From positions 22,506,001 to 22,570,000 of the forward strand of contig OX597825.1 of NCBI GenBank assembly GCA_951406725.2: a DNA stretch of 64,000 nucleotides, read 5' to 3'. This document shows positions 11,360 through 63,905 of this stretch, in pieces. Made by a program: the position numbers and the translations under genes. Origin of the DNA: Octopus vulgaris. Lineage: Eukaryota. The notes under the pieces were generated by a model. It was not told the DNA's origin. It saw nothing but the letters and a program-made list of their open reading frames with translations, and made no database searches. Position 1 is the stretch's first letter. Every line of letters starts with the position of its first letter.

Positions 11360-11507
11360 GGATTTAGCTGGTACTAATTTTACCGTCTCCGAAAGGATGA
11401 AATGCAAAGTCGAACTCGGCAGCATTTGAATTCAGAACGTAAAGACGAACAAAATACCGCTAAGCATTTTCTCCGGAGCGCTAACAATTCTGCCAGTACG
11501 CCGCCTT
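11360..11507 (-). mobile_element. SINE family B, older subfamily
   Basis: Reverse complement begins ggcggcgtactggcagaattgttagc..ggtatttt..gttctgaattcaaat..ctttgcatttcatcctttcgg. Confidence 0.8.
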
Positions 11508-11888
11508 ATTTTCAAATTTTAAATTAAGGCCTTCAAAGAGAATAGAAGTTGCCTGATAATTGACTTTACAGTCCCAAATGAAAAAAAAAACACATCAATA
11601 TGAGAGTTATAGAAAAACTAGCAAAGTACCAGGACCTAGTCATTGAGTTACAGAGACTATGGAAAGTGCAGGTAAAATGTATCCCAGTAGTTATAGGTGC
11701 GTTAAGACCTATCCCTAAAAATTTGAACAGATGGATAAAGGAAATGGGCATAAAACCCAGTCCAGTACATCTCCAGAAAACAACGTCATTAAGGGCAACT
11801 AGGATACTTTGGAAGGTTCTTGGCATCAAAGGTTACTTGTTGTAGCCCGATGTTAGGAATTTTTCTTTTCAAACAATCTAATCTATTG

Positions 11889-12026
11889 ATGCAGCACGGA
11901 TTTTTGTCAGTGAACAGGTCGCGGATTTTAGCGACGAAAATATTTTGACAAATTAAATTAAATGTTGAAGTGAATCGAACGGCTTTTGTGTGTTTCTTAA
12001 ATGGCTTACAAACACCTTCCACGCTG
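11889..12026 (+). mobile_element. 138-bp hammerhead-bearing mini-element (Penelope-like pLTR derivative) with a 10-bp TSD
   Basis: Flanked by taatctattg at 11879-11888 and 12027-12036; homologous to both arms of 51546-51832. Confidence 0.85.
11903..11952 (+). ncRNA. Minimal type-I hammerhead-like motif, G3-C8 variant
   Basis: TTTGTCA|GTGAACA|G|GTCGC-ggatttta-GCGAC|GAAA|ATAT|TT|TGACAAA: 7-bp stem I, 5-bp stem II, palindromic stem III. Confidence 0.65.
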
Positions 12027-12038
12027 TAATCTATTGTG

Positions 12039-12119
<81 letters not shown>

Positions 12120-12159
12120 TATAATAATAACAACAACAATAATTTCTTTTATTTAATCA

Positions 12160-12372
12160 TTTCTACTAAAGGCTCAAGACCTGTCATTTGGTGAGAAAGC
12201 ACTAGTCGATTAGATTGACCCCAGGATTCAGCTGGCATTTTTCTTATCGAAGCCGAAAGGATGAAAGGCGAAGTCAAACTCGGCAGCATTTGAATTCAGA
12301 ACGTAAAGACGGACAAAATGCCGCTTAGCATTTCTGTCCGGAATGATAACAGTTGTGCCAGCTCGGCGCCTT
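12160..12372 (-). mobile_element. SINE family B, older subfamily
   Basis: gaaaggatgaaaggcgaagtc..tttgaattcagaacgtaaagacgg..gctcggcgcc. Confidence 0.8.
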
Positions 12373-13757
12373 AGTTTCAAATTTTAACTTAAGATCTGTA
12401 ACTTCAGGACAGATGGAGTAGTCAATTGCAATGAAGAGCAAAATAAACTCCATTCTCATATAAACCTCACCTCTTTAAAAAAACATTTCTCTGACTGTCT
12501 AACAATTCTACCATCTCACCTACTTATTATTGATATTGACAATAAAATAGGTAATGTGATGAAATTACAAATATGAAGCAAAATTATGAAGCAAGAACTG
12601 GAATTAAATATTGCTAATAAAAAAAAAAATTCCAAACAATCATGACGAGAGAAAATTAATTAATCAGAAGTAATGAAGTAAATAATTTTTTCAGATCTAT
12701 TTATTATCTTACTTTAAAAGACGAAAGTGAATAGGCGGAGTGAACAGGAAATGAAAATAATGCTGACGTGCTGGATATCAAAAATTTCTATAAGTATTTT
12801 TTTTTCTGAAGTTTGGAACGCAAAATCTCTCCTTGTCTTGTCGTTTTTGTGTTTGCTTTGCAAGATTCTTGTTATGAATTCGTGTACTGAAAGGTTTTGC
12901 TTGATGTTTCAGTAATTAACCGAATGTTTATCGAAACGAACGATAAGTTAGTTACGTAAATAACTAACACGTTGACGAATAAGAAATACGTGAAACGCAA
13001 CCTGTGCATGTTATTATTGGCGTTAATAACACCCCAGACATGCAACGAAATATTGCAACCTTTTATTAATGATACTTGATTGTGACAAGATTTTGAATAA
13101 GGATTCTTCAGGGCACGCAAAGTTCAACATGCATTCTCTAGAACTTTATGTTATGTTTTGTTAAATTATGTGGCTCAATGTGCCTTGGTGTATAATTTTG
13201 AACCACTAAGCTAGCGTGCAGTATAGAATGCCATGAACTATTGGTTTCGAGTTTCTAAACTCTGAGTTCAAATGACGTCATTACAAAACTTGGTATCAAT
13301 CAGTGAGATCGTTAAAGAAAATATCACTCAAATACTGATGTCAATTTCTCTACCGAACACGCACACACACACACACATACTTTCTATCTCACTCTCTATT
13401 TCACTCTCTATCTCACTCTCTCTCTCTTTCAATCTTTCAAACAAACACACGCACGCACACACGCACACACACACATACACACACCATGTTTTAATTTGGT
13501 CTCGCTTCAAACATGCCTCGTAAGAAGTCTCAAAACAAGTGTGTTCGCAAACGTTGGCCCACAAAATAATGACCAGTATGTATCTACATCAAACACTTTC
13601 TTATCTTATATTATGTCGGTGGGCTTAAACTAACATATTGAATTCAGGTTCGTAATATCATCAGCGTGGTCCAATGACTGGGTAGTACATTGCAACGTTG
13701 GCCAAAAGACTCTACTTCATTTTATTTCACTCCGTTGAGCTGAAGCATGCGCAACAT

Positions 13758-37992: not shown

Positions 37993-38432
37993 AAGGGTGA
38001 AAAGGAACACACGAGTTGATATATATGAAAAAACAAGTCAAAATAGAAAATGCTAAAATAATTTTATAAAGAACATTTCAGTACCGGTTTCGGTCATTTT
38101 GAGACCTTTTCAACTGTAACGATTAAATAATTAAATTTAGAAAAATTAAATGAAAAGTTTTTTAAAAGGAATATTTGTATAGTGTTCAAATATAAGTGGC
38201 ATTCAAATATAAGTGGCCTCGAACACACAAGTGCAAACAAGGGAGACAAAGAAAGGCAGATTGCCACTTATATTTGAAAACTATACAAATATTCCTTTTA
38301 AAAAACTTTTCATTTAATTTTTCTAAATTTAATTATTTAATCGTTACAGTTGAAAAGGTCTCAAAATGACCGAAACCGGTACTGAAATGTTCTTTATAAA
38401 ATTATTTTAGCATTTTCTATTTTGACTTGTTT

Positions 38433-38437
<5 letters not shown>
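37993..38437 (+). mobile_element. Young fold-back Penelope-like element: 176-bp near-perfect inverted arms plus a left tail, in (TA)n
   Basis: Arms 38026-38201 and 38262-38437 (one mismatch seen); tail 37993-38020; diverged single arm at 61844-62007. Confidence 0.9.
38347..38384 (+). ncRNA. Minimal type-I hammerhead-like motif, U3-A8 variant (mirror copy 38079-38116 on - strand)
   Basis: CAG|TTGAAAA|GGTC-tcaaaat-GACC|GAAA|CCGG|TA|CTG. Confidence 0.7.
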
Positions 38438-38480
<43 letters not shown>

Positions 38481-51409: not shown

Positions 51410-51489
<80 letters not shown>

Positions 51490-51491
<2 letters not shown>

Positions 51492-51832
51492 CGGAGATGC
51501 ACTTGCATGACAAGTGATTTGATCTGAAATCGTGTTTCTGAAACGAAAACAATTGCAGCGTGGAAGGTGTTTGTATGCCAATTAAGAAACACACAAAAGC
51601 CGTTCGATTCACTTCAATATTTAAGTTTAATTTGTCAAAATATTTTCATCGCTTTGAGACCGCGATCTTTTCACTGACAAAAATGCAGCACGGATTTTTG
51701 TCAGTGAACAGGTCGCGGTCTTAAAGCGACGAAAATATTTTGCCAAATTGAACTTAAATATTGAAGTGAATCGAACGGCTTTTGTGTGTTTCTTAATTGG
51801 CTTACAAACACCTCCCACGCTGCAATTGTTTT
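51490..51832 (+). mobile_element. Fold-back Penelope-like element: ~139-bp arms, 9-nt loop, left tail, in (TA)n; G3-C8 hammerhead-like motif at 51697-51747
   Basis: Arms 51546-51684 and 51694-51832, loop gcagcacgg, tail 51490-51545; same family as 11889-12026. Confidence 0.88.

Positions 51833-62050: not shown

Positions 62051-63905
<1,855 letters not shown>

Follow-up and report, generated by a model that had tools for sequence, protein, structure and literature searches.

Structure of the locus

The window is the whole 64,000-nucleotide stretch of Octopus vulgaris contig OX597825.1 that was analysed (positions 22,506,001 to 22,570,000), and all coordinates below refer to it. The 3' end of an RT-bearing LINE ORF, with its stop codon at 11840-11842, and the adjoining 3' UTR occupy 11582-11878 (+), as identified from the ORF, its protein matches and the RT domain. 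The rest of the 3' UTR and an (AAT)n tail are read directly in the sequence at 12037-12120 (+). Between these two parts lies a 138-bp insert (11889-12026, +). The end of the LINE ORF is similar to the C-terminal ends of proteins that reach ca 1100 residues (HMMER, 150 matches listed of 1299, E up to 0.001), and an RT domain was found in all five long relatives that were scanned. Matches were given by the full HMMER search alone; the peptide had none in Pfam, in the PDB or in a word-index search. We take the host LINE to belong to the R4/Dong clade. The ORF end, the RT-bearing relatives and the (AAT)n stretch downstream place the insert in a LINE 3' UTR and not in (TA)n, as an earlier reading of this DNA, made from the sequence only, had proposed. 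Dong-R4 and Penelope families are listed as recently active in O. vulgaris (PMC13282606; this and the other papers are cited here from excerpts). An abundant SINE-like repeat, with 70-84% identity, is present on both sides of the LINE fragment (11365-11530 and 12224-12393) and at no fewer than 10 further places in the window.

The insert is bounded on each side by an exact copy of TAATCTATTG (11879-11888 and 12027-12036, +), again in agreement with the sequence-only reading. With both strands counted, these are the only two copies of the 10-mer in the window. Base composition gives a probability of about 5e-5 that it would recur this close (11 positions or fewer) to the homology edge. The last G of the left copy coincides with the G of the ...CAG that precedes the family sequence in the contig consensus described below, and the first four letters of the right copy overlap the (c)aat of the family. 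The 3' junction (acgctg|taat, compared with acgctgcaat in the family) thus has the microhomology noted earlier, and given this microhomology the duplication could alternatively be read as 6 bp with one substitution. ATT is present on each strand of the duplicated target. A joint from 11888 to 12037, as expected of an empty site, was absent among the 15 joints listed of 63, the reference used holding 16 bases of the right flank.

From alignments and contigs, the insert is best described as a truncated copy of a hammerhead-bearing terminal repeat, likely of a Penelope-like element (PLE) family. Its 3' part (11983-12026, +) consists of a hairpin followed by an AC-rich stretch. Rfam gave no match at gathering score anywhere in the window. 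For the insert itself, six chance-level matches were returned (E 1.7-10), none of them a hammerhead; nor did these Rfam searches, with nothing below E = 1.7 in the insert, point to a Pol III head of tRNA, 5S or 7SL origin.

A predicted hammerhead with a G3-C8 core

A descriptor scan combined with folding predicts a minimal type I hammerhead at 11903-11952 (+). Predicted helix I has 7 bp (11903-09/11946-52, +). The core G3-U-G-A-N-C8-A9, with G3 at 11910 and C8 at 11915 (+), reads GUGAACA. An extra unpaired G (11917, +) would lie between positions 9 and 10.1. Helix II is predicted to have 5 bp closed by G-C (11918-22/11931-35, +) and is followed by GAAA at 11936-39. A palindromic AAUAUU (11939-44, +) takes the place of helix III, and cleavage is predicted after U17, at 11945.

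The descriptor was of our own design and accepted any Watson-Crick 3-8 pair. It gave a single match in the window (11910) and none in 40 simulated windows. A relaxed version added the antisense arm described below and a second, unrelated palindrome, against 0.06-0.09 matches per simulated window. The 50-mer folds with z = -3.4; values for the whole unit range from -1.8 to +0.5. The helix III duplex by itself amounts to -0.2 kcal/mol, and co-folding of two copies did not recover a dimeric hammerhead form.

Minimal hammerheads of PLEs have an unpaired base between positions 9 and 10.1, a G10.1-C11.1 pair and a palindromic helix III (PMC4209133). The predicted anatomy of the insert's hammerhead is this PLE minimal type, except for G3-C8 in place of C3-G8. 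The same G3-C8 core is found in two of the three copies in the window, the third having G3-A8, and in a consensus built from the loose ends of 40 run X11 contigs. The natural core variant described is U3-A8 (PMC3088659, PMC4209133), and G3-C8 appears as an engineered, partly active mutant (PMC11167929, PMC3884650). No natural G3-C8 hammerhead was found in the literature excerpts, although Lunse et al. 2017 and the supplements of PMC4209133 and PMC3088659 may report one.

Two further copies form an inverted pair

The other family copies in the window lie near 51.5 kb. They form a head-to-head inverted pair within (TA)n, with a tail on one side. The sense arm (51683-51832, +) is 92.9% identical to the insert over 140 columns. 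Its first 16 letters are identical to those of the insert, so that the two share their start base, as had been noted before. It has a G3-C8 core at 51704 and one helix I mismatch, and ends in (TA)n without a tail. The antisense arm (51546-51684, -) starts at the equivalent of 11900 and is 90.7% identical to the insert (aligned part 51684-51556). In this arm the core is G3-A8, which leaves the two positions unpaired, and the closing pair of helix II is changed on both sides, from G-C to A-U (51666 and 51648, -). Between the three copies, 8-12 of 129 columns differ; their starts are at the equivalents of 11889, 11889 and 11900. None of the three is arranged in tandem, and no ORF adjoining any of them was found within the window.

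Only the antisense arm carries the 57-bp tail (51489-51545, -); at least the first 14 bases of this tail are found again among the loose ends of public contigs. The tail opens with a look-alike 3' splice site (TTTTCGTTTCAG, 51532-51545, -), the second in the family. A possible splice donor, GTGAAT, occurs in the insert at 11970, about 75 bases before this site when the insert (11970-12026) is continued into the tail.

The family extends beyond both ends of the insert

Contigs of four public runs, of 24 listed, were compared with a reference covering 11560-12052. Two are DNA runs and two (X8 and X20) are RNA runs by our guess; the four come from two organisms and four studies, and run X6 shares its sample with a possible source of the window. 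Contig counts represent variants and not copies, and depth is affected by gaps in the reference.

Contigs clipped just before 11888 numbered 92 of 8692, 63 of 10104, 4 of 240 and 7 of 390 in the four runs. In all four, the consensus upstream of the clip ends in TTACTTTCTCA, which indicates that the family continues 5' of the supposed end of the insert. The two DNA runs agree with each other over 20 bases upstream of 11888. Within the clipped contigs the agreement is 0.48-0.66 over 30 letters and fades within about 20 bases. The clipped contigs are therefore a mixture, and some may start at 11888. Few family copies seem to extend far upstream and long elements seem rare; given the fading consensus, it looks unlikely that most copies are part of long ORF-bearing elements. 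On the 3' side, loose ends after 12030 match the tail in 143, 128, 8 and 11 contigs of the four runs, and the family extends up to 57 bases past the end of the insert.

Splice acceptors are composed of a branch point, a pyrimidine tract and an AG. The 20-base upstream consensus, together with the G at 11888, reads like such a site, and the two sense copies of the window thus begin at a look-alike 3' splice site. In Penelope of Drosophila virilis, an intron lies 46 bases past the start site (PMC2377424) and ends at helix I of the hammerhead (PMC4209133).

Junctions inside the family were read from two tables of joints (15 listed of 63 and 12 listed of 34). Among the joints listed, 11 touch the 5' edge of the family. 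They enter at nine positions between 11887 and 11902 (11887, 11888 twice, 11891, 11893, 11895, 11896 twice, 11900, 11901 and 11902). Joints located upstream of 11888 cannot be placed on the reference, which inflates the edge at 11887-11888; three of the 11 enter there, and two of these may be one locus. The partner ends occupy eight distinct positions from 11917 to 12021 (11917, 11925, 11947 twice, 11952, 11957, 11958, 11983 twice and 12021 twice). Two rows of the tables are labelled as opposite-strand and the others carry no strand label. No pile-up of ends was listed for the contigs of the four runs, which show RNA ends poorly.

Five of the 11 partners listed fall at 11947-11958, at or just past the predicted hammerhead cut after 11945. 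This is a weak hint that cleaved RNA may serve as a template.

The sequence-only reading had described a discrete mobile unit with a fixed 5' end, and had named scattered 5' ends as evidence against it. The 5' ends are in fact scattered (nine entry positions for the 11 joints listed), and a fixed start is true only of the two sense copies of the window, since the family extends upstream. With family sequence beyond both ends of the insert and variable junctions, the discrete unit does not hold either. What survives of the proposal is an insertion that has no ORF, carries a hammerhead, arose by retroposition and relies on the machinery of PLEs.

Copy number and compound forms

Summed depth on the insert reaches 1.2-3.6 million in the DNA runs, compared with 35-78 for single contigs. 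Depth is not copy number, but these values suggest that family copies number on the order of ten thousand. In all four runs, summed depth climbs from the 5' part to the 3' part of the insert, which is what 5' truncation would give.

The summed depth of two junctions, 1588 for one and 3227 for the other, is some 30-60 times that of a single locus, which argues that some compound forms were amplified as units. The first, from 12021 to 11900 with ATAT in between, can only be head-to-tail and represents about 0.1% of the family depth (at least 1.2 million). Together with a joint from 12021 to 11893 in run X6, it would point to head-to-tail repeats of about 126 bp, each with a complete hammerhead, the same-strand reading being deduced from geometry. 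The second junction, from 11957 to 11901 (depth 3227), spans exactly the hammerhead, so that the ribozyme alone would be either inverted or duplicated in tandem.

A probable truncated terminal repeat of a Penelope-like element

Several features are directly seen: an AT-rich duplicated target, the hammerhead geometry, sequence past both ends, variable junctions, and an inverted copy with a one-sided tail. The insert is probably a short, 5'-truncated insertion of a PLE terminal repeat (pLTR) and not a unit with ends of its own. As a PLE terminal-repeat stump it is a known kind of object; the family to which it belongs is probably undescribed.

PLE insertions are highly 5'-truncated, often carry an inverted copy, have a tail at one end and prefer (TA)n (PMC8557442, PMC3846280). 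Their flanking duplications measure 8, 9 or 10 bp (PMC8557442, PMC3846280) and their tails 30-40 bp (PMC8557442). Pairs of hammerheads on opposite strands are known, and single motifs have been taken as truncated PLEs (PMC4209133). With a PLE protein in vitro, both strands are cleaved at ATT, reverse transcription begins within the RNA at an AC-rich stem-loop, and a second start of reverse transcription yields the tail (PMC11167929). The anole element is cut at +26 and reverse transcription starts at +111 to +118 (PMC11167929), i.e. 85-92 bases past the cut by subtraction. In the window copies, the distance from the predicted cut to the 3' end is 81-92 bases. General background is found in PMC6765202 and PMC6155905.

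By analogy with this biochemistry, the insert may have arisen by target-primed reverse transcription by a PLE protein, acting in trans or in cis, that stopped early. The GIY-YIG nuclease of the element would nick the two strands 10 bases apart, with ATT on each strand. The reverse transcriptase would then start internally on the RNA, aided by a 3-base match to the target, in the AC-rich stretch that lies about 81-85 bases beyond the hammerhead cut site. From a template that was spliced or not, it would copy through the hammerhead and halt 14 bases beyond, at the look-alike 3' splice site. Templates could be transcripts of autonomous elements or short ORF-less masters. Two cDNAs, or one cDNA and its fold-back, joined head to head would give the 51.5-kb palindrome.

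The partner encoding the RT and GIY-YIG domains was sought with family motifs, which gave no match in viral, prokaryotic and metagenome collections. Four family motifs likewise had no match in the Naiad/Chlamys/Hydra supplement of PMC8557442, where line breaks and cut runs can hide matches. As far as it is displayed in that supplement, the 3' end of Naiad_Obim is by eye unlike the insert's family.

Alternative origins

The insert could instead belong to a SINE-like, non-autonomous mini-PLE. Short ORF-less masters would then be transcribed and moved by proteins supplied in trans; as their insertions would favour a 5' start at the putative acceptor, a large part of the copies would be units of about 140 bp. 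Both sense copies of the window share their start base, three of the 11 joints listed enter at 11887-11888, the upstream consensus is lost within about 20 bases and two junctions are amplified some 30-60 fold, all of which would fit. However, family sequence extends on both sides, the other eight joints listed enter elsewhere and no pile-up is listed, though contigs cannot show RNA ends. In MFE structures the ends of the unit can pair and could stall or anchor the cDNA, but this pairing is weak (8 of 11 matches, equalled by 593 of 20,000 shuffles) and the whole-unit fold z (-1.8 to +0.5) is unremarkable. We consider this origin unlikely. Terminal pairing as the determinant of the 5' end, being marginal by the same shuffles, was rejected as a candidate in its own right. 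So was a SINE with a fixed 5' end, given the upstream extension and the scatter of the joints. The insert begins with TGCAGCACGG and ends with CCACGCTGCA, whose reverse complement is similar to the start; with the 10-bp duplication, this recalls the short imperfect terminal repeats of a MITE. The terminal match is marginal by those shuffles, the insert copy lacks the terminal CA, and the ends vary, which largely refutes this origin. Moreover, the hammerhead, the one-sided tail and the head-to-head arms are features of retroelements, so that a MITE is hardly credible.

A non-LTR retrozyme would be transcribed from a tandem array, self-cleaved to a circular RNA and reinserted as one monomer. The head-to-tail joints discussed above imply tandem units of suitable kind, and a preprint in which retrozymes are traced to pLTRs also describes solo monomers (bioRxiv 10.64898/2026.07.22.740005). 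However, no window copy is in tandem, and the strongest tandem joint listed represents only a trace of the summed family depth. The ribozyme is of the minimal PLE type and not of the canonical retrozyme type (PMC7229834). In addition, the family enters a different sequence at each end of the insert, and so the two ends of the insert cannot be those of one permuted circle. This origin appears very improbable, and the truncated pLTR insertion accounts best for the observations.

A more far-reaching proposal builds on the PLE origin. G3-C8 would be a natural core swap, invisible to CUGANGA descriptors and to Rfam and still cleaving, in a very high-copy PLE-dependent family. Insertions would start preferentially at two points of RNA processing, the 3' splice site of a pLTR intron and the site of hammerhead cleavage (with joints at 11947 twice, 11952, 11957 and 11958, near the cut after 11945). 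Taken as a whole, this proposal is speculative and we hold it to be quite unlikely.

Comparison with known elements

The insert's family has no linked ORF, and it is likened to EN+ PLEs (Penelope/Poseidon and Neptune) by the anatomy of the terminal repeat. Common to both are the minimal type I hammerhead with a bulge and the palindromic helix III (PMC4209133, PMC3846280, PMC8557442). In the excerpts of these papers, EN+ PLEs also resemble the family in opposite-strand hammerhead pairs, head-to-head inversion, the one-sided tail, duplications of 8-10 bp, and AT-rich and (TA)n targets. The cores found there in print are C3-G8 and U3-A8, whereas that of the family is G3-C8; the tails are 30-40 bp long, against 57 bp in the 51.5-kb copy.

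PAc, a Poseidon element of Anolis carolinensis, shares with the family 3' ends that lie past the cut at an AC-rich stretch, and ATT on both target strands (PMC11167929). It differs in that its ORF starts at helix II; here, the reading frame from the ATG before helix I is closed by a stop within 13-23 codons. The G3-C8 core, natural in the insert's family, is found in PAc as an engineered mutant with partial activity (PMC11167929). Penelope of D. virilis has an intron that ends just before helix I, where the family has only a look-alike 3' splice site (PMC2377424, PMC4209133). Animal non-LTR retrozymes are also small, ORF-less and related to pLTRs, with a type I hammerhead and longer duplications (PMC7229834; bioRxiv 10.64898/2026.07.22.740005). 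In the excerpts, however, they are defined by tandem units (10.64898/2026.07.22.740005), canonical hammerheads and circular RNA (PMC7229834). The family occurs here as solo or inverted copies, with tandem joints as a minor form.

As a PLE stump, the insert is ordinary. A natural G3-C8 core in a high-copy family, if confirmed, would mean that surveys built on CUGANGA and UUGANAA miss whole PLE families, and this would bear on reports of PLE clades without hammerheads. A map of the ends of many short insertions can test whether the template was cleaved, spliced or unspliced, and so address what the hammerhead does in PLEs and why their introns are kept. If starts at the splice site and at the cut are indeed preferred, tens of thousands of junctions would record the splicing and self-cleavage of PLE templates in vivo.

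Other palindromes in the window

A second head-to-head palindrome within (TA)n is found at 38019-38444. Its arms of 186 bp are 99% complementary and are separated by a 54-bp spacer. Each arm contains a minimal hammerhead motif with a U3-A8 core (38350, +, and 38113, -) and a palindromic ACCGGU. Its sequence is unrelated to the insert's family, and it likely represents a younger PLE family. At 62406-63180, inverted arms of 206 bp (87% complementary) surround 363 bp and give no hammerhead match. This region is likely an old PLE fragment; it includes a broken translation, LFYGLSKIY, which we take to resemble the start of a PLE RT.
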